From: a virus
Taxonomy: Duplodnaviria > Caudoviricetes
IMG/VR virus record: IMGVR_UViG_3300010163_000002
Coordinates: 1 to 64,000 of that record
Strand: one strand, 5' to 3'
Length of the DNA stretch: 64,000 nucleotides
Positions 5,384-57,367 of the stretch are shown here, piece by piece. The notes beneath the pieces are model-generated. The model was not told the DNA's origin. It did no database searches and saw only the letters and a program-made list of their open reading frames with translations. Position 1 is the stretch's first letter, and the number at the start of each line of letters is the position of its first letter. The position numbers and the translations under genes were made by a program.

Positions 5384-8011
5384 CTAAGCAATTTCGCCAA
5401 TACATTCGTTGAACACTTCTTCTAAGAAATTTATATTTTCCTCGAAATTATCTTTAGTTGTATCATTGATAATCTCCTGGCAATATTCATGAAATTCTTC
5501 CTTAGCTTTAACACAAGCTTTAGTTTCCACTTTTTTACCATTTATTTTTGTTATAAATTTCTTATCTGGATACTGTTGTTTAATCCAATTTGAAATAACA
5601 CCTCTTAATGCAATAGTAACAGATTTTTCTGCTTCATCCTTGTCATTAAATACTGACAATTTTACTGTGTTACCCACTTCTTCAAGGCCAATATATTTGC
5701 AAACTCGCATATCAATATCTTTTATATCGAAAGAAAGTTCTCCAATGTGGCTGATCATCTTTTCGATAATTACTCTTGGGCTGCCGGTATTAATTTTTGG
5801 CACTTCCTCCATTGCTTTTTTAACGCCAGTTTCAATAAATCTCTGTTTTATCCTTTCTCTTATTATACCAAGGTTGAGATTTTTAAATTCATCGCAACGA
5901 AATTCTATAGGATGGCTATCTGCATCACAAAGAGTTGTTATATCTGACTTTAACACATCCTGCCATGATACAAATAGTATACCGTACTTATACATCCATG
6001 AATCGTAATGTAAAAGATATACATTATCTCCTATAACAAATTTATTTTTATTTTGTTCTTTTTGATCATCCGTTTTGATTAAATGCTTAAATTTATGATA
6101 TAATAAATCTCTCTCCTTTAAAAATTTGTATTTAGTATCAATAATAATACCCATATATGATTTTCTGAATAATATAACTATAGATTTACTAAATTTGTCA
6201 TAAGACACATCGGACTCATCATATGATTCCTCAATCCAATCTGGCATAATATTTTCAAGTTCATATGCACTTACTTCAGTTGGCATAGTGATAATATCAA
6301 TAGTACGTTTAAATCCCCATTTATCTGTATAATTTATGGTTTTAGGAAAACCAAATACAAATTGTGGGGCATGCAGGCAAGTATTTAATGTCAGTTTGTA
6401 TGATTTTTTATTGGTATCGTAATAATCATAGCCATAACTTTTAAATATTTGGTCGGGAATACCTGCAATGATACATGATATGATATCAAATTTTGAAACA
6501 TCTCTATCCCAATCAAAGTTAACATCAAGAACCGATTTAAGTTTGTCTATCATCTCCTTTACTCTAAAGAATGTTTTCTTATTTATACCATTAGATAATT
6601 TATCTCTGCTGATCCTATTAATGCAGCTATTGTATATATCGATCTCAGCAAGTATATCACTTTTACTTTCAAAGGTGAAGTTATAATACTTATATTTATC
6701 GCCATATTCATTTTTAGCATTATAATTAATTAACGACCCCATTTCAATAATAGATACCGCTTTAATTATAGTATCAACACATCCAATCTTTTCAGCTTCG
6801 ATAATCATTTTAGCAGATCTTACCGATACCGGCATTTTTATCATACGTTTTCCTACTTCAGTTATTTTATCATCCTTTATAGCTCCAAGAAGATTAAGAG
6901 TTTTAATAGATGAAATAATACTTTCTTTATCAGGCTGATGGAAAAACTGCAACGCAATAGGATCGATTCCAACACTCATAAGCTTAAGGACAACCTTATC
7001 AAGTGTTAATCTCTGAATTTCAGGCACTGAGAATTCATCTCTTTCGCCCAACCCATTATAAGAACAAAGAACATAGATGCCATCTTTTGTTCTTCCAGCT
7101 CTACCAGCTCTCTGAAGACAATCTGATTTAGATATATCTCTGATGAATAAACCTTCAACGCCATCTATAACTTCAATACGTTTTTCTTTACCATTATCGA
7201 TAACAACGTCAATATCCGGTATAGTAACTGAAGTTTGAGCTATATTAGTTGCTACAATAACTTTAGATCTAGGATAATGCATAAAACATTTTCGCTGTTC
7301 TGCAGATGATAGTTCACCATATAATGGTAAAATTTCCAGATCGAGCTCTTTACCATCATCTTTAATATCTTCTATAAGATTATCTATTTCCTTCTTACCT
7401 TCAACGAATGCCAAAACATTTTTACCGCATGCGGCATATTCCAATACTCTACAAACCATATCATCATGAGCATTTTCAATTATTTGTACATCATAATTAC
7501 GGCCAGGAATACTTATGCATTTAGCATCACCATAAAAATTAGCAAGCCCCTCCAACTCTATAGTTGCGCTCATTAAAACAACCTTAAGTCTATGACCACA
7601 TTGTCTATATTGCTTGATCCACGCAACAAGGGTTTCGATATTAAGATTCCATTCATGTACTTCATCAAGTACAAGGATTGTATTACTAACATCCTTAATA
7701 CCTTTAGCCATCTGAAGCCCATCTGTACAAAATAAAATCTTAGTATCAGGAGTTTTAGTAGATTCAAACGCAGTATGATACCCTACAACATTTTCATCTC
7801 CCATTTCTTCCACTACCCTATCAGCCAAAGTAATACATGCAATACGTCTTGGTTGTGTAACGATTACATCATATCCAGCCTCATATAAATACTGAGGGAC
7901 TTGAGTTGATTTACCAGACCCAGTTTCTGCTGTCAAAATAACAGTATCATTATCTTCTATAGCAGAAATAATTTCGTCTTTGTATTCATAAATCGGCAGT
8001 TCTTTGTTCAT
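5384..8011 (-). CDS. HrpA/HrpB-like DEAH-box RNA helicase
   Basis: LPI...K.EI, AETGSGKSTQVPQ, TQPRRIA, DEVHE, MSAT, ATNIAQTSVTIP, QRAGRAGR, and an HA2-like region. Confidence 0.92.
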   Translation of the reverse strand: MNKELPIYEYKDEIISAIEDNDTVILTAETGSGKSTQVPQYLYEAGYDVIVTQPRRIACITLADRVVEEMGDENVVGYHTAFESTKTPDTKILFCTDGLQMAKGIKDVSNTILVLDEVHEWNLNIETLVAWIKQYRQCGHRLKVVLMSATIELEGLANFYGDAKCISIPGRNYDVQIIENAHDDMVCRVLEYAACGKNVLAFVEGKKEIDNLIEDIKDDGKELDLEILPLYGELSSAEQRKCFMHYPRSKVIVATNIAQTSVTIPDIDVVIDNGKEKRIEVIDGVEGLFIRDISKSDCLQRAGRAGRTKDGIYVLCSYNGLGERDEFSVPEIQRLTLDKVVLKLMSVGIDPIALQFFHQPDKESIISSIKTLNLLGAIKDDKITEVGKRMIKMPVSVRSAKMIIEAEKIGCVDTIIKAVSIIEMGSLINYNAKNEYGDKYKYYNFTFESKSDILAEIDIYNSCINRISRDKLSNGINKKTFFRVKEMIDKLKSVLDVNFDWDRDVSKFDIISCIIAGIPDQIFKSYGYDYYDTNKKSYKLTLNTCLHAPQFVFGFPKTINYTDKWGFKRTIDIITMPTEVSAYELENIMPDWIEESYDESDVSYDKFSKSIVILFRKSYMGIIIDTKYKFLKERDLLYHKFKHLIKTDDQKEQNKNKFVIGDNVYLLHYDSWMYKYGILFVSWQDVLKSDITTLCDADSHPIEFRCDEFKNLNLGIIRERIKQRFIETGVKKAMEEVPKINTGSPRVIIEKMISHIGELSFDIKDIDMRVCKYIGLEEVGNTVKLSVFNDKDEAEKSVTIALRGVISNWIKQQYPDKKFITKINGKKVETKACVKAKEEFHEYCQEIINDTTKDNFEENINFLEEVFNECIGEIA

Positions 8012-12861: not shown

Positions 12862-13221
12862 TTAGCTCCTTTCTGACAGATTTGCTATCTGTCTTGCTAT
12901 ATTAGAGGCTTCTTTATAATTGCGTAGCTCTTCAATGTTATATAAAAATCTTCCGTAAAGCCCCTTATTTAACCCACTACAACATCCATTTACTGTATCA
13001 TTCCAATCCAATATGCATTCTTTGCATGTACTATTGGAATGATACGTGTAGTCGCAGCAAAAGCAATCCGCATGGATTATTTGCTCAACGCAAAGTATTT
13101 CATATAAATACTTGCATTTAATTTCGAAAGCAAAAATCGGTTTCACTTCTTCTACATGATCAGCTATCCAATTCCACATTTTTCTGTGTTCTTCTATAGC
13201 CTGCTCTTTAGTTAATTGCAT
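12862..13221 (-). CDS. Cys-rich EHRKMWNW-family protein (copy 1)
   Basis: LTxEQAIEEHRKMWNWIA...CFCC.Y...CxxC...IAxQIANL, shared with three other genes in the window. Confidence 0.8.
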   Translation of the reverse strand: MQLTKEQAIEEHRKMWNWIADHVEEVKPIFAFEIKCKYLYEILCVEQIIHADCFCCDYTYHSNSTCKECILDWNDTVNGCCSGLNKGLYGRFLYNIEELRNYKEASNIARQIANLSERS

Positions 13222-13345
13222 ACTTACATTCCTCCTTTGTTTACTAAATTATATTAGTTTAATTCAAAATTATAATATACAAATGTAAAACTTAATATGT
13301 GCAACTTTAAAGTAAAAATTAAATAATGTTTGGAGGTATATTAAT

Positions 13346-15932: not shown

Positions 15933-17129
15933 CTATACATTACGAATAGACTTAAAAATTTGATTGCTATCTCTACAAGTTTTGTGCGGGCTTCTATTTA
16001 TCTTATCCTCCGATAAATATACATGCGCTGTGTGCTCGTATGTAGAAGTTTCTTTTAACATATCGCAGTAGATATCGAATGCGGTATCTTTATCCATTGC
16101 TATATATACTTTTTGCTTATCCTGCACTTTATTTTTATAACACAGAACAGTTACAGAATAAAATTTATCTGCGGCATTTACTTCGTTGTAATTTGAATCC
16201 ACGCAATAAATACTATCAAAGTTCATATAATTATGTCTAAAACAATCAGGGATCATTTTTGCACTCTTAAAACAATCCCATATTACTTGCGGGGAGTATG
16301 AATTATTGGAGCCAACGTTATAATGCATAATTGTAAGATTTATTTTCATACGAAAACATACTCTAACAATACTTCCAAATACCATCTGCAATCCGGTTGC
16401 ATATACGCACAAACACTTTGTAGGTACTCCATTTCTGAAAGGGATGTGCTCCCTTATGTACTGCTCGACTATGGCTTCCTGTTTATCGAAGTTGAACATA
16501 AGCGCCTGCGATAGTGCACCTTTGAAGATATAATCTTTAACTGGCATGATATGTCTGTCAGCAACCATGCCTACACTGATTACATCATCTCTGCATATCA
16601 TCAAATTAATTTTATGCGCTGCATGCGCAGGTGCCGGACTTGCACATGGTTTTGTATAGGCGGGAGCAGCGGCCTTTTGTGTCGTGTGCCCCTTCACTAT
16701 GCCAGTAATACCATATTTTGATTTGATTCTGGATACAGAACCTTTACTGATATAGTATTTCTCTGCAAGTAATCTTATTGGCATGCCAGATTTAACGTCG
16801 GATATAAATTCGTTTATCTGATCATCTGTCAACCCGCAAATGTTACCAGCTTCAGTACCAACTTTTCTTCCCGGTTTATGCTTAATTGTTAATTTTTCAT
16901 CTTTTATATTCGGTTGTTCCATTGGCATAATTTCTACGGGTTTAGATTCTTTATTTACATAAGCCCTTTCCACTGCGTTTATCCTATCAACGCTTATATT
17001 ATATTTTGCTGCAAGCATTTTCTTTTCCTCCCGTTCTTTTGTTTTTTCGATGGTTAATAGCGAATTATATACTTCAATAGTTTTCCTATCCATTTCTTGG
17101 ATAGGTTTTGAATACCTAGCCATTATCAT
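15933..17129 (-). CDS. HTH-containing DNA-binding protein
   Basis: LAAKYNIS and LAEKYYISKGSVSRIK HTH-like segments. Confidence 0.6.
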   Translation of the reverse strand: MIMARYSKPIQEMDRKTIEVYNSLLTIEKTKEREEKKMLAAKYNISVDRINAVERAYVNKESKPVEIMPMEQPNIKDEKLTIKHKPGRKVGTEAGNICGLTDDQINEFISDVKSGMPIRLLAEKYYISKGSVSRIKSKYGITGIVKGHTTQKAAAPAYTKPCASPAPAHAAHKINLMICRDDVISVGMVADRHIMPVKDYIFKGALSQALMFNFDKQEAIVEQYIREHIPFRNGVPTKCLCVYATGLQMVFGSIVRVCFRMKINLTIMHYNVGSNNSYSPQVIWDCFKSAKMIPDCFRHNYMNFDSIYCVDSNYNEVNAADKFYSVTVLCYKNKVQDKQKVYIAMDKDTAFDIYCDMLKETSTYEHTAHVYLSEDKINRSPHKTCRDSNQIFKSIRNV

Positions 17130-17195
17130 TCCTCCTTTGTAATTTGTTCAACCATCTATATATTTTTATTATATACAATTTAAATATTAACGAAG

Positions 17196-19039: not shown

Positions 19040-19372
19040 TTATTTTTCAGATACAATAGTTAAATTGTTGCCATTGTATCCAGTGCCAATAAGAGCAAAG
19101 GTTTCGCTTTTAAATTCAAACTCTGCTCTTTTTAGTACTTTAATTACTACGAAAATATCATCCGAATCCTGCACAACGGCAAAAGATTTTGTCACAATAT
19201 TTAATTTCCTTTCGGAATCTATTGTACATAGATCGCATTTGATATTTTCATTTTTTAATTGTTTAAATTTTATTTGCCGTAGAGTACCGTTGGTATTTAC
19301 AGCTCCCCACGGAAATATTAATTCTGTTCCCGGTATAAACTTAAATGTTAAACCGGGTATATGATCACTCAT
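19040..19372 (-). CDS. hypothetical protein
   Basis: AAGGAGG SD before ATG 19372. Confidence 0.65.
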   Translation of the reverse strand: MSDHIPGLTFKFIPGTELIFPWGAVNTNGTLRQIKFKQLKNENIKCDLCTIDSERKLNIVTKSFAVVQDSDDIFVVIKVLKRAEFEFKSETFALIGTGYNGNNLTIVSEK

Positions 19373-19460
19373 AATACATTCCTCCTTTGTTAGAATATTT
19401 AGCCGGAGCAAATCAATGCTCCGGCTATTCACTCTTATATTATATTATTAGAATAATTGA

Positions 19461-23421: not shown

Positions 23422-24612
23422 TTATAAAGCTATTTTGTATTTATTCTTGTTAAACAGCTTCTTTTTAATATGTACATCTTCGCCTCTAGCGCAAATATTT
23501 TTAGTGCTTCTGAATCCTGCAGCTTGTTTGTGCCCGCCGCCACCAAAACCACTTACTTTACCAAAGATTCCTGCAAGACGCTCACAATCTACATCATCTT
23601 TTGTAGTATATAATGAATACGTATATGCTTCTCCATCATACATATAAGCCATCATTAAATCATACTCTTCAGCCAATCTACCAAACATTGTACTATTGCC
23701 AAGTTTGTTAATAGCAATAACACTGTAAACTCTAGCGTCATTTGTATCATCTACGATAGAAAATTCTACACCATAATCTTTAAGCATTGATTTATTCTGC
23801 ACGTTGCTGTATTTTACAATTGTTCTGCCATGCTTAATTAGTTTTCTGATATACTTATCTTCGGCTTTTTGAGAAGCTTCGTCAAGTTTATCAAAAATAT
23901 TAACCCGTTTAATACCATCATTAATCGATATAAATATTTCATCGAACAATACATCCGGTTGATGATCCTCCATCAAATCGCCATAATGGAATTCTTTGGT
24001 AGATGGCATATCATGAAGCCAAATATCCCACGAGTTAATATATCTTATATATTTTGGTATGTCATATGTTCCAAAATCCCCAACGCATTTAATAGCATCA
24101 TAAAAATTTTTGTATTCCATGTGTCCTGTACGTAATTTACCATAAAAATAACAAATGACGGATGCAGAATGCGCTTGTGTGATTACGTAATTAATATTTT
24201 TAATTTTGCTCCTAACGTCTTTAGGTCCCTTGATATTGTATACATTATCATTCACAAAATCAAATGATGTTTTATGATGATCAATCCATGTAACCGTGCA
24301 TCTTTCGGCAAGGTTAAATAATACTTCTATATTAAATTTATTGCTGAAGGAATAATCAACAAAATATATTTCATCTCCAGATGCTACCATATCTAACGCT
24401 TCATCTAGCATTACAGAATAGTCTACTGAGATGAATTTAATCATTGTATCGCTTACACCATTCCATATTAAATATTCATATATAATTGCAGCCGATGTAA
24501 TACCATCAGCATCATAGTGATGGACTATATAATATGATTTATTGCATGTATTTCCTGATAATAAAATATATTTTGGTTCAGCTTGATTAAATAATAAAGT
24601 AGTATTTTTCAT
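23422..24612 (-). CDS. DHH/DHHA1 phosphoesterase
   Basis: HH.DADG, FVDYS, WIDHH and GGGGH..AAGF motifs; AGGAG SD before ATG 24612. Confidence 0.9.
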   Translation of the reverse strand: MKNTTLLFNQAEPKYILLSGNTCNKSYYIVHHYDADGITSAAIIYEYLIWNGVSDTMIKFISVDYSVMLDEALDMVASGDEIYFVDYSFSNKFNIEVLFNLAERCTVTWIDHHKTSFDFVNDNVYNIKGPKDVRSKIKNINYVITQAHSASVICYFYGKLRTGHMEYKNFYDAIKCVGDFGTYDIPKYIRYINSWDIWLHDMPSTKEFHYGDLMEDHQPDVLFDEIFISINDGIKRVNIFDKLDEASQKAEDKYIRKLIKHGRTIVKYSNVQNKSMLKDYGVEFSIVDDTNDARVYSVIAINKLGNSTMFGRLAEEYDLMMAYMYDGEAYTYSLYTTKDDVDCERLAGIFGKVSGFGGGGHKQAAGFRSTKNICARGEDVHIKKKLFNKNKYKIAL

Positions 24613-24629
24613 TTTCAACTTCTCCTTTA

Positions 24630-24711
24630 AAATAATAAATTTCCAGAGTAGTCGCGGCACTACTCTGGATATGCTTTGGAAGGATTTTACACAGCATAAG
24701 TTTAATGCTTT
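24630..24711 (-). ncRNA. candidate small RNA or attenuated leader (promoter, hairpin, AUCCUUCC, terminator)
   Basis: AACA GTTTTA TA at 24711-24722; terminator stem 24642-24669 with U-rich tail; no ORF. Confidence 0.4.
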
Positions 24712-24743
24712 ATAAAACTGTTATATATGTTATAATACTTTAC

Positions 24744-25043: not shown

Positions 25044-25104
25044 ATTGTATTCCTCCAAAAAATAATAGGACGCTATAATTAAATAGCGTCCTAAATATAT
25101 TTAA

Positions 25105-27903
25105 CTAAATAGACGTTATAAAGAACATAAGCTCTTGCTTCACGATGTCATTATACATAGGAACTATATTACCATCATATTCTCCAGGCTTATGATTTTC
25201 ATCGTCCCAGTCAATAATTTCAAATGATGATGATATAACGGCTCCTATTAACTCTTGTATTTTTTGTTCTATCTTCTGATCATTATACTTAGCTTTAATT
25301 TGTTCATATAACGGATCTATTTCAATACTAAGCATATCCTTCTTACTTATAATTTTTCTTGATGCTAATCTTACAACTCTTCCAGAAACTATATATGGTA
25401 ATATTACCATATTTGATCTTAAGAGTATTCTCTTTGCCGCTATAACCAGTTTAATATAGTCCCTCTGGCTATGAATAGCTTTCATACTTATAGGATCTCC
25501 AAATTCTTTATAGAATAAATATCCAACAAGTTGTTTCTGAAATGGATTAATTACAGACGCTCCGTCTTTTGTCAGTTTTCTCTTAAAATGATTTATCTCT
25601 TCATCAGAAAATGGGCCATACAGAGCTTCAATCTTTTCAATCGTTTTTTCTGCTGATACCTTATTCTGCATTGAAAGAGCTTCATCTTTTTTGTTCAATC
25701 TTGCCTCATATCTCCTGTTGTTCACATGGGTCGTTAATCCATGCAGTTCTCTTATGAACTTCTCTGGTATTTCTCCAGATGTGCAGACTATATCACTAAC
25801 CTTAAAATCACCCAAGGTTACTCTACTATTTGGATTTAAGGGATTCTCACCCGCTCACTTGAGCCCTACTCCTGTTGCCGAATTTCACGGCCCTTCCGGG
25901 GATAGTCGTTGAACGTTATTAGTAATCATATTTATCACAAATATTAATAAATGTCTTTTTGTTTCTTATGCACGATATAAGTGTTGCATACCTAGCTTTA
26001 TTCTTCTTATCCATATTACCATAATCTAATCCTATATAATTCAATACCTCTTTAGTAGAAATTTTTGGATTTGATTCTAAGTATTTGCAGATAATATTTA
26101 TTTGATCATATGATAATATTCTATATACTTTATCCATATTATCAAAATTATATTTGCTAGATATGTGTTTCCAACAATGGCCATTTTTTATATTTTGCAC
26201 TAATCTCCTCATATCACAATTTTCTATTGGAAATATAGAACATATCTGTTTTGTACTGTACCCCTCAGATATTAAATAGCATATATACTCAACTTGCTCA
26301 TTGGTCACTACGCTATTACTTCTATCCTCTCCAAGCGTTATAAGGTTATTGTTCACTGCATGTTGCATATTTTCATTCTTTGTGCACCATTCTAAATTCC
26401 ATAACCAATTATGATATTTTATTCCGTCTTTATGATTTACATCATATAAATTTTCATACGGAATTGGACAAAATGCATTTAATATTACTCTATACAAGCT
26501 AATGCTAAATCCGCCGCCATCAATAGTTGACAGTCTTATAGTAATATAATGGTCCTTATTGTAACTCTTATTCAATGGTATTATATTTCCAGTCGCTAAA
26601 TTATAAACAAAGCCAGAATTACTAACTTTGTAATGTCTTGCTACCATTGGGTACACGCTATATGGGAAGTCTGCCCATACTTCCTTAAAAACAAAATTAA
26701 TAGGATAAATCATCATATCACCACCTTAAGGTTTTAATATGATTACTAATTTTCGCCGCTGATTGGACATTATTTAAACCCTTAGCGCCATATGATCAGT
26801 ATGGCTTTTATTTCAGCATAGGTCATCCTAGAACTTATTTCTGTCTTTCGACTCCTATTATATATAGGCATCTAGGCTTTAGCCCTTCCCAGCTTAAAGT
26901 AGAATTATTCATCACACTGTTACCAGTATAATGCGACCGATAGTTGATCGTATTCCGAATTCTGATCTGCATCTCTCTTTGAACTGCTAAGGCGGAAGAA
27001 TGATAATTCATATTTTATATCTGTAATCTTAAATCCAAGATATTGCCTATTGCTAAAATAGTTAAAGTTGATAATATTCTTATCGTAGCTATATTTTGGC
27101 AATATATTCATGATTATATCAACAACAGAATCCTTTGTATGTGTGGTTGTATTATTACCACGAATTTGATTCTTTATCCATAATGGCCTATCAGGATTCT
27201 TAGACTTATTTACTACAGAAACAGCAGTTTCATAAATCTTATCATAAATATATATTCCACGTTCTTCTTCATATTTGACTATACACATATCAAACAACGC
27301 AAGCATAAAATCCTGAATGTCCTCGGATGATTTGATACAGTGTATGTACATATAATGAGTGGCTAATGGAATATACATATTCATTATAAGTGAAATTTCA
27401 TATAATACTTTTGCGTGTCTATTATTAAACTGCAAATTTGGTGTTCTGTTATTATTTGATGATAACTTCATCAAATAATTATCATCGACAAAATGACTTA
27501 TCTTATAAGTCAAATTCAAATTTCTTATAATATATCTATTAATATCATCCATGAAATTGGCCTTGCTATAGTTTCTAAAATAATCTATATTAAGTTTAAT
27601 CTCATAAATGATCATCAACAACTCTTTATCGTAATCATAGAATTTCTCAAAGTAATTTAAATACTTACAAATATGATCACGTGTCTCATTAGAGTTGTAA
27701 CTACGTTTTGTATTCATAGCGAAATAATTCAGAGATTTCTGATTTTCATCTCCCGCACAGAAAAAGTCTGTAATTGGTAATATAATTTCACCACGAATAT
27801 TTCTAAATATCATATCTTGTTCTGCTATGGGATATTTTTCTGTACCCCATTCATCTACTGGCACATGGTCGGTTTTATTGACCACTCTACACATATCTAT
27901 CAT
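25105..27903 (-). CDS. probable sigma-like promoter-specificity subunit of non-virion RNAP (AR9 gp226/phiKZ gp68-like); intron-split, exons 27903-26947 and 25713-25105, 521 aa spliced
   Basis: Exons join in frame (NSEYD|RYEARL). It lies two genes downstream of the chaperonin, matching the recalled AR9 gp228-gp227-gp226 order; early-type motif upstream. The function is inferred from synteny and size. Confidence 0.6.
25714..26946 (-). mobile_element. group I intron (IA-like) with HNH homing endonuclease
   Basis: P element AAGCTGGGAA, Q AATCAGCGG, R TTCAACGACTA, S GATATAGTCT. P1 CGAU/GUCG with a U.G pair at the 5' splice site; terminal G at 25714. Confidence 0.92.
25919..26716 (-). CDS. intron-encoded NUMOD4-HNH homing endonuclease with C-terminal HTH
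   Basis: EVW....YKVSNSG; VNHKDG.K.HN...NLEW....EN..HA. Confidence 0.9.
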   Translation of the reverse strand: MMIYPINFVFKEVWADFPYSVYPMVARHYKVSNSGFVYNLATGNIIPLNKSYNKDHYITIRLSTIDGGGFSISLYRVILNAFCPIPYENLYDVNHKDGIKYHNWLWNLEWCTKNENMQHAVNNNLITLGEDRSNSVVTNEQVEYICYLISEGYSTKQICSIFPIENCDMRRLVQNIKNGHCWKHISSKYNFDNMDKVYRILSYDQINIICKYLESNPKISTKEVLNYIGLDYGNMDKKNKARYATLISCIRNKKTFINICDKYDY

Positions 27904-27959
27904 TATAAAACCTCCTCTGTTCACAATATATTTATATAGTATACAATCTAAGCAGCTTT

Positions 27960-28751
27960 TCAACCACTGCGAGGACGCTTCATAATAGCCTTCTTTGTTG
28001 TTTTAACTGTCTTAGTCTTGTTTGGTATTCGTGATACAGTAGAAGTTTTTGTTACTGAACTTTTTATTGTTTGTTTAGATTGTAGGGCTTTGTCCTTCCT
28101 TTCTTGTTTTTTAGCTTCGGATTTTGCCTTATTAAGTTTTTCTTGTTCCTTCTGTCTATCTTCTACCTTTTTTGTAGCATGGGTTATTTGATCCAATAAA
28201 GTACGTTTTACATATTTCTTGCCATGATTTTTGAGTATATTTCTATTAAAAAGATTATACTTTTCCATAGTTAAATATGCAAAATACAGCGACTTTACAT
28301 ACCAAATATCGTCTTTAGGATTACGCTCTTTTGCAACGTCTTTCAATGCCCTTGAAGACATCTTGCTTTCCAGATCTTTTATAAATAAATTATGTTTTCT
28401 AAAAGCATGAACAAATGTATAGTAAAATGCCGGATCATTAGAATAGAATTGTACTGCATATTCGCGCAAACTAACATTAGATTTCTTTTTATTTTCAGTT
28501 GTAAATAATCTTATTACTACATCATAATAGAAGTTTGATATTACTTCTGATGGCACCTTGATGTATATGTAATATGAATCGTTAGAGTCATTTGTATAAA
28601 ATACCTGCCAATCTATTTTACCATTTTCTCTAACTAAAACTTTATCAAATTTTGATTTATATAAACTTTTATACATGCCTCTATTGGTAATAACAGAGGC
28701 CCCTCCTGACGGATTGTCTATATATTTATCAAAATTCATTCCGTCTGCCAT
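27960..28751 (-). CDS. conserved hypothetical protein with basic C-terminal tail
   Basis: KVPSE....FYYDVV..., FYSNDPAF; lies between the chaperonin and the sigma-like gene. Confidence 0.65.
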   Translation of the reverse strand: MADGMNFDKYIDNPSGGASVITNRGMYKSLYKSKFDKVLVRENGKIDWQVFYTNDSNDSYYIYIKVPSEVISNFYYDVVIRLFTTENKKKSNVSLREYAVQFYSNDPAFYYTFVHAFRKHNLFIKDLESKMSSRALKDVAKERNPKDDIWYVKSLYFAYLTMEKYNLFNRNILKNHGKKYVKRTLLDQITHATKKVEDRQKEQEKLNKAKSEAKKQERKDKALQSKQTIKSSVTKTSTVSRIPNKTKTVKTTKKAIMKRPRSG

Positions 28752-35553: not shown

Positions 35554-35565
35554 TATTATATTGTT
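35554..35565 (-). promoter_or_regulatory. late-type promoter (AACA-N6-TA)
   Basis: AACA ATATAA TA upstream of MCP. Confidence 0.7.
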
Positions 35566-45673: not shown

Positions 45674-45817
45674 AGCAAGGCCTCCTTTCTTTATTATAAT
45701 AAATATGTGCGCCCACCGAGAATATTTTCTTATCCTCAATCATAAATATATTATGCAACCAAAAAACTAATTGTTTACAGTATTATTACGGATAGGGAAT
45801 TAACCCTATCCGCATAT

Positions 45818-47335
45818 TCAATCATTATATACTACACTGCACATTACCTTATGAGTATTATATTTTTCCACAACCATATTATATCTTCTATCTATTTCAT
45901 CATCACTCATCCACACATCCTTACAAGATTTAGCATATACAGATAATATAGGTTTCTTTGTCTCATAATATCTCTTTGTAAAGAAAAATCCATGATCAAC
46001 TAAATCTATATACAGCCCTTCCTCTCTTGGTCTACCAAGGGTTTGTCTTGTTAGCACTTCAGATCTAAATGGTTCTGCTAGATTAACAACTACTTTAAGA
46101 TGTTTTATATCAGATGCAGTTCCAGAAGATTTAGTAGTACTAAGAATAATCTTATTATGAAGATTTAAATTTCTAAGCTCTTTCTTTATAGCGCTAGTGT
46201 AAATTCCCATATTGTTTTCAAGAAACGGTAATTGAGATATTAGATAATCATAAACATCAGCAATGCCTGAGTTAGTGCCAATGTAAATGATACATTTACC
46301 ATTCATATTGACTATCATATCTAATATTACCACTGCAAGCTTAAGAAAGTTTGGCCTAGCAACCAAATAATTAGTATATTTATTACGATTGAAACCATAC
46401 TGATTCTTGCAAGCTCTTATATCCATTGGAGATGGATGGGAATTAAAATGTATTGCCCAATAAGTAACATGAGGATCGGTATTCTCATCAAATAATGATA
46501 TTGATGGAATATTCTTAAAATACATTTGATATATTTGGTTTTCGTCTTTAGAAGATCTTGCCGGTGTTGCTGTTAAATATAAAGTCTTTTTTGTATTAGA
46601 GTGATAATCTATTTTACTCATATTATCAAAATACAAATGAGCTTCATCAAACACTTTCATATATATCTGCATATATTTGAATAGCTCATCTACTTTATAC
46701 CAACCGTACTTATCGCCATATGATCTTATTGTAGCATGAGATGCTAAAAATATTTGATATTGCAGTGGGTCTCTATTCAATAATTTATGAATACTAGAAG
46801 ATCCAGAAATCATATACAATTTATTTTCATGCAATGGAGTATACTCTAATATGCGAGCTTTCCATTGATTTAACCACTCAATAGAATTAGTAATTATTAC
46901 GGCTCTAGCCCCGGTAAAACATATTGATGCTACCGTGACAAAAGTTTTACCACTGCCAGTGGCAGAATTGCATGATAATTGAGATTTGGATTTGGTATAA
47001 TAATAATTATCTTTACCAAGAATGAATTTAAGTATCTCTGATTGTCTATCATCCTTTGTTAAATATTTAATACCTATAGGATCAGTATTTACGTATGGAT
47101 CTGATACTTTATCTACATACGGTTCGCACATAAATGTATTTTTTAAATAATTTATATCAAATCCTCTTGGTATAATAAGTTTTTTATTTTCTTCATCATA
47201 TTCTATTGCCTTAAAGAATGATTGATGATACGTTGGGTTCCATACAGAGAATAAATATTCTAATCTTGGAGCGTCCCCCATTTCATAATTATTTATTTCT
47301 ATTCTAGAATGTTTTAATACTATCTTCTTATCCAT
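45818..47335 (-). CDS. UvsW-like SF2 DNA helicase
   Basis: ATGSGKT, FDEAH, LTATP and QTLGR motifs. Confidence 0.88.
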   Translation of the reverse strand: MDKKIVLKHSRIEINNYEMGDAPRLEYLFSVWNPTYHQSFFKAIEYDEENKKLIIPRGFDINYLKNTFMCEPYVDKVSDPYVNTDPIGIKYLTKDDRQSEILKFILGKDNYYYTKSKSQLSCNSATGSGKTFVTVASICFTGARAVIITNSIEWLNQWKARILEYTPLHENKLYMISGSSSIHKLLNRDPLQYQIFLASHATIRSYGDKYGWYKVDELFKYMQIYMKVFDEAHLYFDNMSKIDYHSNTKKTLYLTATPARSSKDENQIYQMYFKNIPSISLFDENTDPHVTYWAIHFNSHPSPMDIRACKNQYGFNRNKYTNYLVARPNFLKLAVVILDMIVNMNGKCIIYIGTNSGIADVYDYLISQLPFLENNMGIYTSAIKKELRNLNLHNKIILSTTKSSGTASDIKHLKVVVNLAEPFRSEVLTRQTLGRPREEGLYIDLVDHGFFFTKRYYETKKPILSVYAKSCKDVWMSDDEIDRRYNMVVEKYNTHKVMCSVVYND

Positions 47336-47380
47336 AATTGCACCTCAAAAAATAATCTAGTATTATTTTAACATTGTTAT

Positions 47381-47475
47381 AATGTGGTACTAAAAGTGCT
47401 GGTGCTACATTCCTCCAAGTTTTTCTATATACGCTGATGGCCCGTAGGGAGAAATCCCTACGGGCTAGCTTTTAT
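47381..47475 (+). ncRNA. candidate small RNA with exposed anti-SD motif (UCCUCC)
   Basis: AACA TTGTTA TA promoter at 47370-47381; 11-bp hairpin with three G.U pairs valid only on the plus strand; GAAA-loop terminator with U tail on plus; both flanking genes are on minus. Confidence 0.6.
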
Positions 47476-47853
47476 TTATAGCACTACTGTATTTGCCGGC
47501 ATAAATGACAATCTTACTGTGGATTGTCTATAATGCTTTTTAAATATACCAGCATGATATTTTATTACATTCTGCCATTCATCTATACTAAGATTAGCGT
47601 CATAACATTTAGCGTATGATGCCTGAAGAACAAATACTACTTCGCCATTTTTAGGGCAGCCCCATTGTTCCTTATAAGTTGTTCTTCCAGGAGTAATAAG
47701 CCATGTCACATAAGTATTTGTACTGGCATCTATTTCGTCTTCTATGATTTTAATCTCTTTGCAGAAATCTTCTATTGTGGTAATAACGTTTTTATGAAAA
47801 TAATCGCTGTTAATACCCAACGTAATCTGAGCTATACATTCATTATAATTCAT
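47476..47853 (-). CDS. hypothetical protein
   Basis: 125 aa ORF; T.Y...WGCP..GE. Confidence 0.65.
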   Translation of the reverse strand: MNYNECIAQITLGINSDYFHKNVITTIEDFCKEIKIIEDEIDASTNTYVTWLITPGRTTYKEQWGCPKNGEVVFVLQASYAKCYDANLSIDEWQNVIKYHAGIFKKHYRQSTVRLSFMPANTVVL

Positions 47854-47854
47854 A

Positions 47855-50053
47855 CTATTCGCTCTCCTTTTTATCTACAATTTTAACCATCTCTATACCC
47901 TTTTCAGGATCTAAGATATCCACCTTGTCTGTAAATAATCCATCAGACATATAATTCTGCGGCTGTTCGCAGAAGAATAAATCAAAGAATGATGGCGCAT
48001 GTTTAGTAAATGATAACGGATTATAAAGAACTTTATGAAGATCTCTATAAAGCATAGATACAATAACACTAGGGTTGTTTACCAATGCATGATCCAATGT
48101 AAGCATCTTGCATTCAGCAAATGGATCATTCCAATTAGGTCTCTTAAGAACATCTGTCGTTGAAACCATCTGATTTGATAAGATTACTTCCAAATGAACT
48201 GCATCTACATCAAGACCCCCATCAATAACCAAATCAACAAAAGTCTGCATAATCTCATCTTTATTCATATTCTCTGTAACTGAAGCTTTATTGATTACGC
48301 TAATGATATCATTCATTGTTTTACTAATTTCATCATTGAAAATTCTTACATAGAACAGAATATCATCTGTAAGGCTGCTAAGTGGTATTGATACCTTTCC
48401 ATCTACAGCATGAGCTTTCTTACGAATAGCATTGTTAAGTGCTGTAGAAATATATAACGAATCTTGATCTTGCGTACCACATTCTATCATTTCTCCAGTT
48501 GGCGTTTGAATATAAAACGATGTTACATACTCATTATATAACCCGAAGCCATCATCTTCCATAGATATCTCATTACCATCGTCGTCGTATGATATTACAT
48601 CTTCCTCGTCATTTACAAGAAATATTTCTTCTGGATCAATGATTAAGAAAAATTTCTTAAGATCAAACTCATCCAAATCAGTAAGTTTAATACTTGTACC
48701 ATCTATATCAAAATAGTCCTGAAATTTTGGGAACCATTTCAGCGCAACAACTCTCGTTTCAAGAAGATGCTTGGCTGATAATAGAATCTGCGTAAGTTTT
48801 GATGATAACAATTCTGCAGCCATCTTGCCAGGGTTTATATTAATATTTGTATAATACAAATCTCCATAACAGCACTTGCATATTCCTTTACCAGATGTTT
48901 TGCACGAGCAAGTCATTGGAGAATGTAAATATATTGTTTCTCCTATAAGGGATTTATCTTCTGTATCAATTAAATACTTAATACCCCTAGGATTTTTACG
49001 ATAATATCTATTCTTAATCATACTAAGATGCTTATCTGATTTTATCTTAAATTTAATGAAATGCTGGGACATACATTCATAATTAGCATCCGGATTAAGA
49101 ATTGTATCTATATTGTTAAGGCCTAAACATCTAGCAAAGTCTCCAGAATCTCCAACATTATTTTTAGATAGAATTTGTGCTTTACGAGCCACACTAGATT
49201 CTATATAAAAATATCTCATATTATTTACTCCGCCATTGGTAAAACTATTAGCAATTACCTCTGGGAAGATCGTACCATCCCCGCTAGGTTTAGTACCTAT
49301 ATTGATCCTTGCTTCTTTAAACTGTCTTGGATTAATAGCTTCTTCTGCCTTGAAACTATTTGTTAATCCATGATCAAATCCCAAATATTTACGACTATCT
49401 TTAATAATATCTATAGCCTTATATGTTGCTTGCATACCATATTCCTTCACGCTCTCAAATGGGACATCCTGGAGAGTTGTATGCATAAGATCTCTGTATA
49501 ATGGAACCTTTTCCATTAACATAATATCGTCTTCATTATTAATGGTATTAGCAAGATAGTAAGAGAACTGTTCTATTTTGCTAAAGTTCCATAGGCTATC
49601 ACATATAATATTATTAAGGTAGATATTTCCAAACTTAATTTTATTTTCTCTAGTTAATATGAACTTATCTACAAATACTTTCATATTTTTTCTTTTTAGT
49701 TCGCTACCAAAGAAAATGTGTTTAGGCCTAATTTCCTGATCTGTTAGAAGAACCATCTTCCACATAAAAAGGCTAAACCAATAATCTACAACAAATAGTT
49801 TACAAGATAAACCATTGCCCCAATCAAGATTAATCATGAGATTATGCACATAATCTTCATCAATACCATCTTTAAGAATAGCATCGATACCATTAATGTG
49901 ATCTGAAACATTAGCCTTTGTAATATCCCTAGGAACATAGATCGTCATACACATATCTCTGTTCTTTATCATATCTGCATAGATATAATAGTTCTTATAA
50001 TTTACTAGGTAACTTTGATTAAAATCCTCATTAACCATATAGCCTATTTCCAT
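47855..50053 (-). CDS. RNA polymerase beta-prime C-terminal fragment (probably non-virion RNAP)
   Basis: Bridge-helix-like K..VGDSGDFAR; Zn site SPMTC...GICKCCYG; trigger-loop TQILLSAKH; HLEVIL; early-type motif upstream. Confidence 0.88.
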   Translation of the reverse strand: MEIGYMVNEDFNQSYLVNYKNYYIYADMIKNRDMCMTIYVPRDITKANVSDHINGIDAILKDGIDEDYVHNLMINLDWGNGLSCKLFVVDYWFSLFMWKMVLLTDQEIRPKHIFFGSELKRKNMKVFVDKFILTRENKIKFGNIYLNNIICDSLWNFSKIEQFSYYLANTINNEDDIMLMEKVPLYRDLMHTTLQDVPFESVKEYGMQATYKAIDIIKDSRKYLGFDHGLTNSFKAEEAINPRQFKEARINIGTKPSGDGTIFPEVIANSFTNGGVNNMRYFYIESSVARKAQILSKNNVGDSGDFARCLGLNNIDTILNPDANYECMSQHFIKFKIKSDKHLSMIKNRYYRKNPRGIKYLIDTEDKSLIGETIYLHSPMTCSCKTSGKGICKCCYGDLYYTNININPGKMAAELLSSKLTQILLSAKHLLETRVVALKWFPKFQDYFDIDGTSIKLTDLDEFDLKKFFLIIDPEEIFLVNDEEDVISYDDDGNEISMEDDGFGLYNEYVTSFYIQTPTGEMIECGTQDQDSLYISTALNNAIRKKAHAVDGKVSIPLSSLTDDILFYVRIFNDEISKTMNDIISVINKASVTENMNKDEIMQTFVDLVIDGGLDVDAVHLEVILSNQMVSTTDVLKRPNWNDPFAECKMLTLDHALVNNPSVIVSMLYRDLHKVLYNPLSFTKHAPSFFDLFFCEQPQNYMSDGLFTDKVDILDPEKGIEMVKIVDKKESE

Positions 50054-50208
50054 TATAAATATCCTCCTTGCTTTTTCTTCTTACTCCTTTATAATATACC
50101 TTCAAAAAGAAATTTGCGGTATTATATTAAAGTACGGGAAGATATAAAATCGTAAAATGGAAAATAAAAACCGCATGGGTATTATCCCATGCAGCCTTTA
50201 TATCGTTC

Positions 50209-50700
50209 TTACATAAATCTGATCGGCGGAAGCTTCTTAGCATTCTTAATATGCTCTTTCTGGGATCTCTTTGCAATTGTCTTTGCCTTGGTCCCGTATT
50301 TGGTAAAGATAGCAAGTCTAAGCTTTCTCTCTTTAACACGATTAAGCGCAAGCTGTTTAAACAGCGGGTCCTTAGCATTTCTGCAAAGAATAAGTGCAGC
50401 AAGATGCTCTCTACGAGTAAGATCATCATTCTTTCCAATTCGAACAAATGTTTTCTTACTCATCTTCTGAGCTTCAACCATAGCCTGAACCTCTGCAGAC
50501 TCGGTAAATGATTTCTGAACTTCTTCTCCATTATCGAAATACGTCATGCTCTCCAAAGCAGAAGTCATCATATTGTTCTCTACTTCTTTAGCAATGGCAT
50601 CCATACCATCTTCTGTATCCGGATCGGCATTACCAGCAATAAGATCAATATCATTAGTTTCTGCCTCAGTACCTTCCTTTAAATACTGGTTAAATAACAT
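50209..50700 (-). CDS. probable virion head/core protein
   Basis: Late promoter AACA TAACAG TA at 50756-50767; acidic N-terminus with LxE sites; basic C-terminus. Confidence 0.5.
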   Translation of the reverse strand: MLFNQYLKEGTEAETNDIDLIAGNADPDTEDGMDAIAKEVENNMMTSALESMTYFDNGEEVQKSFTESAEVQAMVEAQKMSKKTFVRIGKNDDLTRREHLAALILCRNAKDPLFKQLALNRVKERKLRLAIFTKYGTKAKTIAKRSQKEHIKNAKKLPPIRFM

Positions 50701-51311: not shown

Positions 51312-53444
51312 ATGTCAGATATTAGTTTCATGCCCAAAGTACTAAGTGCCAAAGCAATACAAGAATATGAACAAGTAATGGTAGATGGATTAAGACATTC
51401 GTTCCCATTACTAAAAGAATCAGAGCTCAGAGAAGCCATAGAATATTCTATTAGTAATAGATTCAAAGATTCTCCGGCTCAGATTAAAAACAATTATACT
51501 AATAAAAATTTAAATGGTACAGCGTTAGAGGTTCTTTCATATATAGAGAAACTACAGCCTATTATTACATCAAGCGGCGTATTGTTTAAAAGACATAAAG
51601 AAGCAGATAACCCACTATCAAGAATGATTATGGGTTTTATTAATCAAAGAGCAAAATATAAAAAAGAGATGTTTAAATATCCTAAAGGATCAGAAATGTT
51701 TCAGAGATATAATTTACTACAACTACTGGAAAAATTAAATGCTAATGCCACATACGGCGTGTTAGGCGCACCGACCTCGGCTTATTATAATATATATGTA
51801 GCAGAAGCAATTACCCGTCAGGGTAGATCTTATATTAGTTGTAGTATTATGCTATTTGAATCATTATTGTCTAATAACGTTAAATTTAATAACTTAAATG
51901 AAGTAATTACGTTTATCAATAACGTAGAACATGAAAAACCTAACAGAAATTTACTGGATAAATATATACTTGATAGAAATATTACTTTGGAAGAGTGTTT
52001 CTTTAAGATTATGAACACTGCGGATATGATGATATGGATTCCGACAGAAACAGAAATGGCAAGAGTATGGGAATACATTCAAGGATTATCTCAGGAAGAT
52101 ATTAATAGGTTATATTATAAGAATAACTTGTATTCATTTGTAGATCTTCCAGTTGTTACAGATTTAGTAATAAAAATTCTTGGAGAATTAAATACTCCAT
52201 TTATGAATCCTAATAATCCGCCAAAAAATATTAAAGAGGATCTTGATACTCTTGTTTGTATGATTAAGGAGTATGTGTATTACCCGCACTTCTATATAGA
52301 CAAGCTTGATCGTATTGAGTATATGCAAAGAGACATAGTTGTGGTATCAGATACCGATAGTACAATTATATCATTTGACGCATGGTATAGATTCATACTA
52401 CAGAAAGTGTACAATCTAGATTTGCCAATCAAAAAAGAAAAATTTGATATGGTTAAAGTCATTAAAGCAGATGAGTTTGGAGATTTACCATTAAGAGAAA
52501 TGTGCGAAATTGTAGATCCTGTATACGATTACAATTTCTATACAGATGAAGTGATTGAATTGCAACGACTAATTGAACCATGCAAAATAATACCTCAGGA
52601 GTCTCTTAAGTATTCAATTATCAATATAATTGCTTATGTATGTAGCGACCTGGTGGTGGATTATTTGCGTGAATATACCAAGCTTACTGGAAGTTATCAG
52701 GAAGGCGTAAAATGCCGCATGATTATGAAAAATGAATTTACCTTCTTGCGTCTGTTGCTGACTAATAATCGTAGAAATTATGCGGATATTCAAAGCATTC
52801 AGGAAGGAAACATAATACCAAAAAGCGAAAGTATGGCTATCATGGGCCTTCCCATCAACAAAAGTGTATTATCAGAAGATACAAAAGAAAAATTACAAAG
52901 AATTCTGTATGAAGATATACTTACTGCTGACAATATAGATCAAGTAAATATTATGAAGAAGCTTGTATTATTTGAGAAAGAAATTTATAATAGTATTATG
53001 AATAAAGAGATCAAATATTATAAGCCAGACAATATAGCATCGTTAGCTTCATATAAGAAAGAACCATTGTCTGTTAATGGTATATTGGCGTCTGTTATTT
53101 ATAATAAGATGCGTGCAGAAGATATGCCAGCGATTAATCTTGAAGAAAGGAATAAAATAATAAAAATCAAGATTGATGTTAACAAGAAAAATGTAGAATC
53201 TATAAAGGATATATATCCGGAAGAATATGCTAAATTGGTTGCGTTGTTAAATGACCCGGTTCTTGGTTCTAAAGTTACCACAATAGCATTACCGCTTGAT
53301 ACTGCAGTGCCAGATTGGGTATTATCATTTGTAGATTTTAAAACAATCATTAATGACCAGCTAAAGAATTTCCCATTAGATAGTGTTGGAATTAAACGAT
53401 TGCAAAATGATTCTGTAAATGTATCAAATATAATTCAATTATAG
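51312..53444 (+). CDS. family B DNA polymerase, split catalytic subunit (motifs B and C)
   Basis: Q...K..ANATYG, IT..GR, SDTDS, MKNEF. No exonuclease domain or DxxSLYPS motif seen. Confidence 0.88.
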   Translation: MSDISFMPKVLSAKAIQEYEQVMVDGLRHSFPLLKESELREAIEYSISNRFKDSPAQIKNNYTNKNLNGTALEVLSYIEKLQPIITSSGVLFKRHKEADNPLSRMIMGFINQRAKYKKEMFKYPKGSEMFQRYNLLQLLEKLNANATYGVLGAPTSAYYNIYVAEAITRQGRSYISCSIMLFESLLSNNVKFNNLNEVITFINNVEHEKPNRNLLDKYILDRNITLEECFFKIMNTADMMIWIPTETEMARVWEYIQGLSQEDINRLYYKNNLYSFVDLPVVTDLVIKILGELNTPFMNPNNPPKNIKEDLDTLVCMIKEYVYYPHFYIDKLDRIEYMQRDIVVVSDTDSTIISFDAWYRFILQKVYNLDLPIKKEKFDMVKVIKADEFGDLPLREMCEIVDPVYDYNFYTDEVIELQRLIEPCKIIPQESLKYSIINIIAYVCSDLVVDYLREYTKLTGSYQEGVKCRMIMKNEFTFLRLLLTNNRRNYADIQSIQEGNIIPKSESMAIMGLPINKSVLSEDTKEKLQRILYEDILTADNIDQVNIMKKLVLFEKEIYNSIMNKEIKYYKPDNIASLASYKKEPLSVNGILASVIYNKMRAEDMPAINLEERNKIIKIKIDVNKKNVESIKDIYPEEYAKLVALLNDPVLGSKVTTIALPLDTAVPDWVLSFVDFKTIINDQLKNFPLDSVGIKRLQNDSVNVSNIIQL

Positions 53445-53550
53445 AAATATAGGGAGGGTTTAAACCCTCCCTATAAATTTCTTTAGTAATATATTATAAT
53501 TTTGAATTAAACTAATATAATTTAATAATAAAACAAAGGAGATTTAAATA

Positions 53551-53973
53551 ATGAAATTAACTAAAGAGCAAACAATTGAAGAACATCATAAGATGTGGAA
53601 TTGGATTGCTGAAAATGTGCACGATATAAGACCAACTACAGCAAAACAAATTAAAGAATATTACTTAAAAAATATAAGTTGCTTAAAAGAAACAACTGAC
53701 AATAATTGTTTTTGCCCAGAGTATATTAATGAATTATGCTATAATTGCTCATTATATTGGGGAGCTAAACCGTATAGATGCGTGATTGATAACTGCGTGT
53801 TTTATATAGAGTTCTCAAAGTATATTAGATGTGCTGATTATGTAAAAGCAGCAGATATGGCAAAATTGATAGCAAACTTACCAAAAAGAAAGGATGATAA
53901 TAATGGAATTAACCAGAGAACAGGCTATCGAAGAACACAGAAAAATGTGGAATTGGATTTCCGAGAATATTGA
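53551..53973 (+). CDS. Cys-rich EHRKMWNW-family protein (copy 3)
   Basis: Family motifs; the tail reads about 23 codons into the next gene. Confidence 0.75.
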   Translation: MKLTKEQTIEEHHKMWNWIAENVHDIRPTTAKQIKEYYLKNISCLKETTDNNCFCPEYINELCYNCSLYWGAKPYRCVIDNCVFYIEFSKYIRCADYVKAADMAKLIANLPKRKDDNNGINQRTGYRRTQKNVELDFREY

Positions 53974-57233: not shown

Positions 57234-57367
57234 CAAACAAAAAGATATCCAGTAGGGTTTCCCCTACTGGCACTTTTATCTCGTTTAATAATATAAATTT
57301 GGCTGGAATTTATTTATCATTATAACAAGATATACTTTAAGATATAATGAATTTTTTGCTTTTGCCT

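Follow-up and report, generated by a model that had tools for sequence, protein, structure and literature searches.

To our knowledge, few regulatory RNAs are known from virulent phages. RsaE/RoxS and RNAIII combine a stand-alone promoter, hairpins that flank an unpaired pyrimidine seed directed against GGAG-type Shine-Dalgarno (SD) sequences, and an intrinsic terminator. The C/U-rich seeds of Gram-positive small RNAs act by pairing with the SD, which blocks ribosome loading or triggers decay. Phage cis-antisense RNAs include lambda OOP, aQ and the c4 RNA of P1/P7, the last of which blocks a ribosome-binding site (RBS) from exposed loops (PMC12197685). All of these belong to temperate phages, are transcribed by the host polymerase, and have a defined coding gene or RBS that they overlap or target. 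For the Yersinia phage phiR1-37, which belongs to a related lineage of uracil-DNA jumbo phages, RNA-seq yielded misc_1-10, nine of them antisense RNAs and one 'encoded within an intragenic region' (PMC12197685); none of them has an assigned role, and phiR1-37 has no defined late promoter motif.

In phage AR9, 94 late transcription starts carry AACA-(6N)-TA/G, the last base of which is the transcription start site (TSS) (PMC5312081). The gp226 subunit of the non-virion RNA polymerase (nvRNAP) reads the -11 AACA -8 element through the template strand (PMC9209446), and the AR9 early consensus is AAATATATATTAT-N6-G (PMC5312081).

The window analysed here is a stretch of 64,000 nucleotides, the first 64 kb of a 248,905-bp IMG/VR virus record that has direct terminal repeats; G+C is ~32%. 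Among public sequencing runs, parts of the stretch were found in DNA contigs from rat-gut metagenomes and one other study, and no RNA run was listed as containing the window. A DNA similarity search against catalogued phages gave no match, nor did a search of reference genomes for related sequence, which was aimed at the host. By their predicted products, the genes around the locus of interest mark an AR9/PBS1-type jumbo phage. DNA polymerase, virion protein, beta', small gene and helicase are syntenic with AR9 g152-g156, and the helicase is 32% identical to AR9 g156. The block is made up as follows.

51312-53444, plus strand: divergent family-B DNA polymerase gene
50209-50700, minus strand: virion protein gene
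50091-50098, minus strand: early (vRNAP-type) promoter core TATATTAT, 38 nt upstream of the beta' gene
47855-50053, minus strand: nvRNAP beta' C-terminal subunit gene (split beta'), homolog of AR9 g154, first in the early operon
47476-47853, minus strand: 125-aa gene with no assigned function, its 3' end adjoining the terminator tail of the unit described below
45818-47335, minus strand: SF2 DNA/RNA helicase gene, homolog of AR9 g156, the divergent neighbour of the unit, without a promoter of its own in the spacer

Elsewhere in the window, at 5384-8011(-), an 875-aa DEAH/HrpA-like helicase with DEAD, Helicase_C and HA2 domains is encoded, which is unusual phage cargo.

The two minus-strand genes at the end of this block are separated by a 140-bp spacer (47336-47475). 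Within it we identified a plus-strand unit, 47370-47478(+), with the following parts.

47370-47381, plus strand: AR9-type late promoter AACA-N6-TA, AACATTGTTATA, predicted TSS A47381
47375-47383, plus strand: overlapping extended -10-like element TGTTATAAT, read from the sequence, a possible alternative host sigma-A promoter
47381-47411, plus strand: 5'-terminal hairpin starting at +1, 12 bp with three G.U pairs and a 7-nt loop (47381-47392 pairs with 47400-47411)
47412-47432, plus strand: single-stranded pyrimidine-rich linker beginning CCUCCAAG, with CCUCC at 47412-47416 and UUUCUA at 47422-47427
47438-47467, plus strand: terminator hairpin of 13 pairs, 8 of them G-C, with a GAAA loop at 47451-47454, followed by GCUUUUAUUUAU
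47468-47478, plus strand only: U-rich tail GCUUUUAUUUA, overlapping the stop codon of the minus-strand 125-aa gene

As in the AR9 late promoters, AACA (47370-47373) occupies -11 to -8, with T47380 at -1 and A47381 at +1. The extended -10-like element TGTTATAAT has no -35 alongside it and was not called by the consensus scan; a TSS ~7 nt downstream, as for this host sigma-A alternative, would cut into the 5' hairpin. That hairpin has a predicted energy of -12.2 kcal/mol on the plus strand versus -1.0 on the minus strand, the predicted unpaired probability of CCUCC at 47412-47416 is 0.99, and the RNA folded from A47381 has a z-score of -5.0 against shuffles. On the plus strand the consensus scan found an intrinsic terminator, with a G+C-rich stem-loop followed directly by the tail GCTTTTATTT; at the same hairpin it called no terminator on the minus strand, where the tail reads CAUCAGCGUAUAU. 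No credible ORF lies in the unit, which contains only MWY* and a 14-codon frame without an SD.

Predictions thus give a locus with its own promoter and terminator, a stable fold and no ORF. The initial annotation had proposed just such a self-contained plus-strand unit, with a phage late (nvRNAP) promoter type and a strand-specific terminator, and our analysis supports it: promoter, +1 hairpin with three G.U pairs, linker and GAAA-capped terminator all lie where it had placed them. Its further claims that the hairpin is functional on the plus strand alone (-12.2 vs -1.0 kcal/mol), that the U tail is confined to that strand, that no ORF is present and that an anti-SD-like tract is exposed (CCUCC, 0.99) likewise agree with the folding, the consensus scan and the frame check.

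At gathering thresholds, Rfam gave no hit in the window, and hits around the unit were at chance level only. The best of these sub-threshold hits was the trpB motif (24.4 bits against a cutoff of 59), a score that reflects no more than a generic hairpin-plus-terminator layout. A tRNA/tmRNA search found none. The terminator is a member of a set of 16 intergenic hairpins genome-wide that share an invariant inner core, TAGGG-loop-CCCTA, and whose outer stem bases co-vary (CCCG, CCGG, CCCC, TCCG, GCAG). Located mostly at the 3' ends of genes, these hairpins resemble a terminator family specific to the phage, and their core recurs in relatives; those inside the window are at 45793-45808, 47445-47460 and 57253-57266.

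A comparison with the described systems places the unit near several of them. With the late non-coding and antisense transcripts of AR9 it shares promoter type (AACA-N6-TA/G, gp226 nvRNAP), lineage and synteny (PMC5312081). The AR9 antisense RNAs lie opposite other genes (g125/g126 and others) (PMC5312081), whereas the present unit stays within an intergenic spacer and ends at a terminator of its own. Like OOP, aQ and c4, it is a short phage RNA transcribed against neighbouring genes; unlike them, it overlaps spacer only and belongs to a virulent-type jumbo phage. The phiR1-37 RNAs have no evident tie to the unit in sequence, position or structure. The layout is the same as that of RsaE/RoxS and RNAIII, but there is no sequence or Rfam relationship, and, unlike those RNAs, the unit is assigned to a phage multisubunit polymerase with a template-strand promoter and has a loosely conserved seed. 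The RNA family is new, being without an Rfam match, and so is its maker, an AR9-type nvRNAP; the kind of RNA is already known. Our literature search found no report of an AR9/PBS1-group regulatory RNA driven by a polymerase that reads uracil-containing template-strand promoters.

The late promoter assignment draws on the transcription scheme of the whole phage. AACA-N6-T[A/G] occurs in 300 copies on the two strands of the 249-kb genome, and 25 of these lie 12-60 nt upstream of same-strand gene starts, versus 4-19 of 415-614 for permuted or respaced controls, an enrichment of 3-8x. Structural genes are among those preceded by the motif, for example the major head gene, with its motif at 35554-35565(-). 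A homolog of gp226, the sigma-like nvRNAP specificity subunit, is encoded at 26929-27753(-), within 26920-27963 (E 1e-9, 26% identity over residues 26-290), and many intergenic regions carry the AR9-like early motif TATATTAT, as at 50091-50098(-). Because of the late-motif enrichment, the gp226 homolog and the early motif in many intergenic regions, the phage very probably uses the AR9 two-polymerase scheme. Two early-promoter cassettes (TATATTATAATTTTGAATTAAACTAATATAATTTA...), at 13222-13300(-) and 53470-53560(+), are near-identical through the leader into the first codons and head two small paralogous genes with no assigned function.

Gene-less pairs of late motif and terminator are not enriched genome-wide (9/300, against 6-12 of 398-614 for permuted motifs). 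Since the motif is short and such orphan pairs are not enriched, a single locus proves little.

The same caution applies to the messenger targets that had been proposed for the linker. The initial annotation named 11-nt complementarity to the RBSs of the genes starting at 13221 and 19372, and the matches exist: in the whole 249-kb genome, GGAGGAATGTA is confined to 13225-13235(-) and 19375-19385(-), each immediately 5' of an ATG, at the RBSs of the gene 12862-13221(-) and of the reading frame whose ATG is at 19372(-). Matches of 9-10 nt that had been noted near 17129 and 25043 were also found, at 17127-17135 and 25049-25058. Its caveat that GGAGG-containing matches are common by chance proved well placed: with UCCUCC fixed and the flanks shuffled, the best match reaches at least 11 nt in 66% of trials, and at least two such TIRs occur in 43%. 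The 13221 and 19372 sites share a longer common RBS context, and neither gene has a homolog in G001 or G002, two near-complete relatives that retain the RNA. As evidence for specific targets, the two sites were therefore rejected. In G001, the seed has 19 near-matches in its own genome versus 14 for the reversed control, no clear excess, and neither this genome nor G001 yielded a target with complementarity beyond chance or co-varying with the seed. With RBS matches at chance level and orphan pairs not enriched, the case for the unit therefore rests on conservation and not on one locus.

Relatives were gathered by helicase and beta' protein searches of viral and metagenome contigs. We identified the same layout in eight diverged relatives (L058, L010 (= L006), L011/L012, L013/L015, L017, L024, L025 and L026), and in all eight the unit lies on the strand opposite beta' and helicase, in the equivalent place between the nvRNAP beta' and SF2 helicase genes. 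The shared layout consists of AACA-N6-T[A/G], a hairpin starting from +1 to +3, an unpaired linker and a G+C-rich stem-loop. All eight have TA or TG as the TSS dinucleotide, and a U-rich tail follows the stem-loop in most versions, being weak in L013/L015 and L024. RNA lengths across the versions run from 92 to 207 nt. In a MAFFT alignment of seven units, the terminator aligns and the 5' halves do not. The presence of the motif at the hairpin start in every lineage is not due to chance, because there are only 300 copies in 249 kb.

In 8/9 versions the stability of the 5' hairpin is higher on the RNA strand, with 16 G.U pairs in total, and a +1 to +3 hairpin is found in just one of the 32 late promoter-to-gene leaders of this genome. 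Strand-biased hairpin stability and rarity among late leaders point to selection on the RNA product of the plus strand. No small protein on the RNA strand is conserved among the versions.

In a helicase tree, the unit-bearing lineages, whose helicases differ by up to ~36%, all group in a single 14-member clade (support 100/100). Of these 14, six have the terminator alone at the site, without the unit. More distant relatives, including AR9, lack it, and the AR9 g154-g155 spacer holds a bidirectional terminator only. The unit appears to be old and to have been lost two or three times; because it is absent from 6/14 clade members, it is dispensable.

The genes next to the unit vary. L058 is without the small gene, and in L010 and L017 an additional ORF precedes the helicase. 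Whether the beta'-helicase slot holds a small gene (122-238 aa) differs among relatives, and the inserted ORFs are of 104 aa and 278 aa (L010 6203-6517, L017 6250-7086). L080/L090 have, at the corresponding spot, a late promoter that drives a protein gene in the divergent orientation. In L058, the late promoter of the unit is immediately preceded by an early-type motif, ATATATATATTAT, at ~2456-2480 (locus minus strand), and the L058 RNA may be made both early and late.

We also compared the linkers. The recurring tract is a sub-string of the 16S rRNA 3' tail (...CACCUCCUUUCUA). The versions read as follows.

Window: CCUCC
L010: CUCCU
L013: ACCUCC
L017: CUCCUUUCU
L024: UCCUUUCUA
L025 and L026: UCCUU
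L058, the closest relative: UUCUCUUUU, with no core 5-mer in the linker
L011/12: CUCCU inside the terminator stem only, not in the linker

A core anti-SD 5-mer (CCUCC, CUCCU, UCCUU or ACCUC, a set picked after viewing the sequences) is thus present in the linker of 7/9 versions, at a predicted unpaired probability of 0.66-0.99. UCCUCC, the conservation of which had been named as a touchstone in the initial annotation, is not conserved as such; what is kept, in those 7/9 versions, is a looser pyrimidine tract. The P value of the 5-mer is ~3e-5 against composition-preserving shuffles and 7e-6 against a non-RBS intergenic background, both of which overstate the case because the set was chosen post hoc and the nine units are homologous. 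The L017 and L024 tracts match the 16S 3' tail over 9 nt, although the host's own tail may differ, and these two are also the only ones of the seven units scored in which RNAduplex against an extended SD beats shuffles.

Two mundane sources of the tract were considered and rejected. Generic terminators carry a core 5-mer in the 35 nt upstream in 10/95 cases, which equals background, so the tract is not a general pre-terminator feature. A mini-ORF or leader peptide on the gene strand, behind GGAGG, is not conserved and does not explain the tract, because no conserved start codon follows the complementary GGAG.

We put the probability that the unit is a real late small-RNA gene at about 0.8. Tentatively, and at somewhat less than even odds, we favour a mode of action in which the exposed pyrimidine tract base-pairs with the SD regions of specific mRNAs. 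The nvRNAP with its gp226-like specificity subunit would start at A47381 from AACA-N6-TA and produce a ~95-nt RNA ending at the intrinsic terminator (47438-47478), and the hairpin at the extreme 5' end probably guards this RNA against 5' decay. The ~21-nt single-stranded linker with its CCUCC would then pair with purine-rich SD regions of particular mRNAs, phage early or host, so as to block ribosome loading or trigger decay. Because the mRNA of the early beta'-to-helicase operon would have to run through the spacer, the RNA is also fully complementary to that mRNA and may act there too. Several findings weigh against the SD-pairing reading: the RBS matches are at chance level and belong to genes absent from G001 and G002, the G001 seed shows no clear excess of matches, duplex energies against an extended SD beat shuffles in only two of the seven units scored, the linker motif is missing in L058 and L011/12, and the unit is missing in 6/14 clade members. 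A replication-origin primer RNA was set aside, because the strong terminator releases the transcript. Comparison alone delimits the candidate, through nine diverged versions, a strand-specific structure and a semi-conserved exposed tract, and should it act on RBSs, it would illustrate how host ribosome use can still be tuned by a phage that needs no host transcription.

The main rival to pairing in trans, which we consider a real but doubtful possibility, is that the late RNA acts in cis as an antisense to the early operon. It would pair over its full length with the spacer of the beta'-125aa-helicase mRNA, and the ~95-bp duplex would be cut by a double-strand RNase, uncoupling or destabilising helicase or beta' expression late in infection. 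The sole early promoter for the block is at 50091-50098(-), and the minus strand of the spacer has neither an early nor a late motif; because it has no promoter there, and because the minus-strand hairpin has no U tail or terminator call, helicase expression would need read-through from upstream, which we infer and which is a weak point of the cis reading. The position of the unit is fixed beside the stop codon of the upstream gene in every relative despite gene insertions, its primary sequence drifts freely, as expected of such an RNA, and AR9 has seven late promoters driving antisense RNAs, mostly late in infection (PMC5312081). An action in cis leaves unexplained, however, why the pyrimidine tract stays unpaired in 7/9 versions, and neither an RBS nor a coding sequence is overlapped by the RNA, whose 5' end stops ~35 nt short of the helicase SD (47341-47346). 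A cis-antisense effect is plausible regardless of any other role of the RNA, given its perfect complementarity to the spacer of the read-through mRNA, and if it does act in cis it would be a clean case of late antisense control over an early replication/transcription operon.

Other accounts dispense with messenger-specific pairing. It seems improbable that the RNA does some other job without SD pairing, for instance by titrating a nuclease or RNA-binding protein as a decoy or sponge, with protein binding at the pyrimidine tract. Its stable, structured appearance with a conserved single-stranded U/C-rich tract would suit such a role, as would complementarity searches that gave no target, but no result points to a protein partner, and the 9-nt 16S-tail matches in L017 and L024 point to pairing with purine-rich RNA. 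Quite improbable, too, is a functionless RNA, its promoter and terminator being either a transcriptional roadblock or insulator against early read-through or the relic of a lost divergent late gene. The one-strand G.U pairs of the +1 hairpin in 8/9 lineages speak against it, as they indicate selection on the RNA and not on transcription; a remnant 5' UTR would show GGAGG on the plus strand, not CCUCC, and persistence across lineages with helicases up to ~36% apart argues against decay. It would nevertheless accommodate the divergent protein gene behind the late promoter of L080/L090, the fluid gene content between beta' and helicase, the 6/14 clade members without the unit, and orphan motif-terminator pairs that are as frequent as for permuted motifs. 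The initial annotation had itself favoured a global mimic of the 16S rRNA 3' tail, which would sequester SD sites and shut down early or host translation late in infection. We judge this very unlikely, even with CCUCC exposed and with L017 and L024 matching the tail over 9 nt (CUCCUUUCU, UCCUUUCUA). The phage's own late genes carry strong GGAGG right after their late promoters and would be hit as well, and the abundance of the RNA would need to rival that of ribosomes; moreover, the tract is short, variable and sometimes missing (L058, L011/12), 6/14 relatives do without the unit, and the named targets are at chance level.

Units of related design occur elsewhere in the genome. A second one (~24628-24722(-); L092, L094) lies immediately upstream of a DHH phosphoesterase gene (23422-24660) and comprises a late promoter, AACAGTTTTATA, a short hairpin, an unpaired AAAAUCCUUCCAAAG and an 11-bp stem with a U tract. 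Both G001 and G002 keep it; in G001 the tract is near-identical, and an A-U pair of the stem is replaced by G-C in a compensatory change. The kinship that had been suggested between the window unit and one at 24630 is supported by this shared design, which is itself conserved in the two relatives. The second unit may be a terminating leader (attenuator) or a 5' UTR-derived small RNA.

A third unit, beyond the window (74289-74502(+) of the whole genome, G000; L101), has a late promoter, AACATCTTAGTA, a 13-bp +1 hairpin and a strong terminator. Its long linker contains UAUCCUCCGAU, and the unit as a whole runs antisense to a small ORF (~59 aa). G001 keeps the architecture, again with a small ORF on the opposite strand. 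By analogy with type I toxin-antitoxin systems, the RNA could be the antisense partner of a gene for a small protein.

It is conceivable, though unlikely, that a few late RNAs, transcribed by the phages' own multisubunit polymerase, together reprogram the loading of mRNAs onto host ribosomes late in infection in AR9-like jumbo phages of the gut, with the window unit, the leader-type unit at 24628-24711(-) and genome 74300-74502(+) as the candidate members. Each member would combine a +1 hairpin, an exposed tract resembling the anti-SD and a terminator. Early messages of the phage or those of the host might be silenced in this way, and phages whose transcription already bypasses the host would then have temporal control at the RNA level as well.

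A unit at 205739(+) (G000 205728-205826) is not conserved as a promoter unit, G001 and G002 showing a 3' UTR and terminator only. Further late-motif units without an ORF are located at G000 241657-241752 and 94440-94563.
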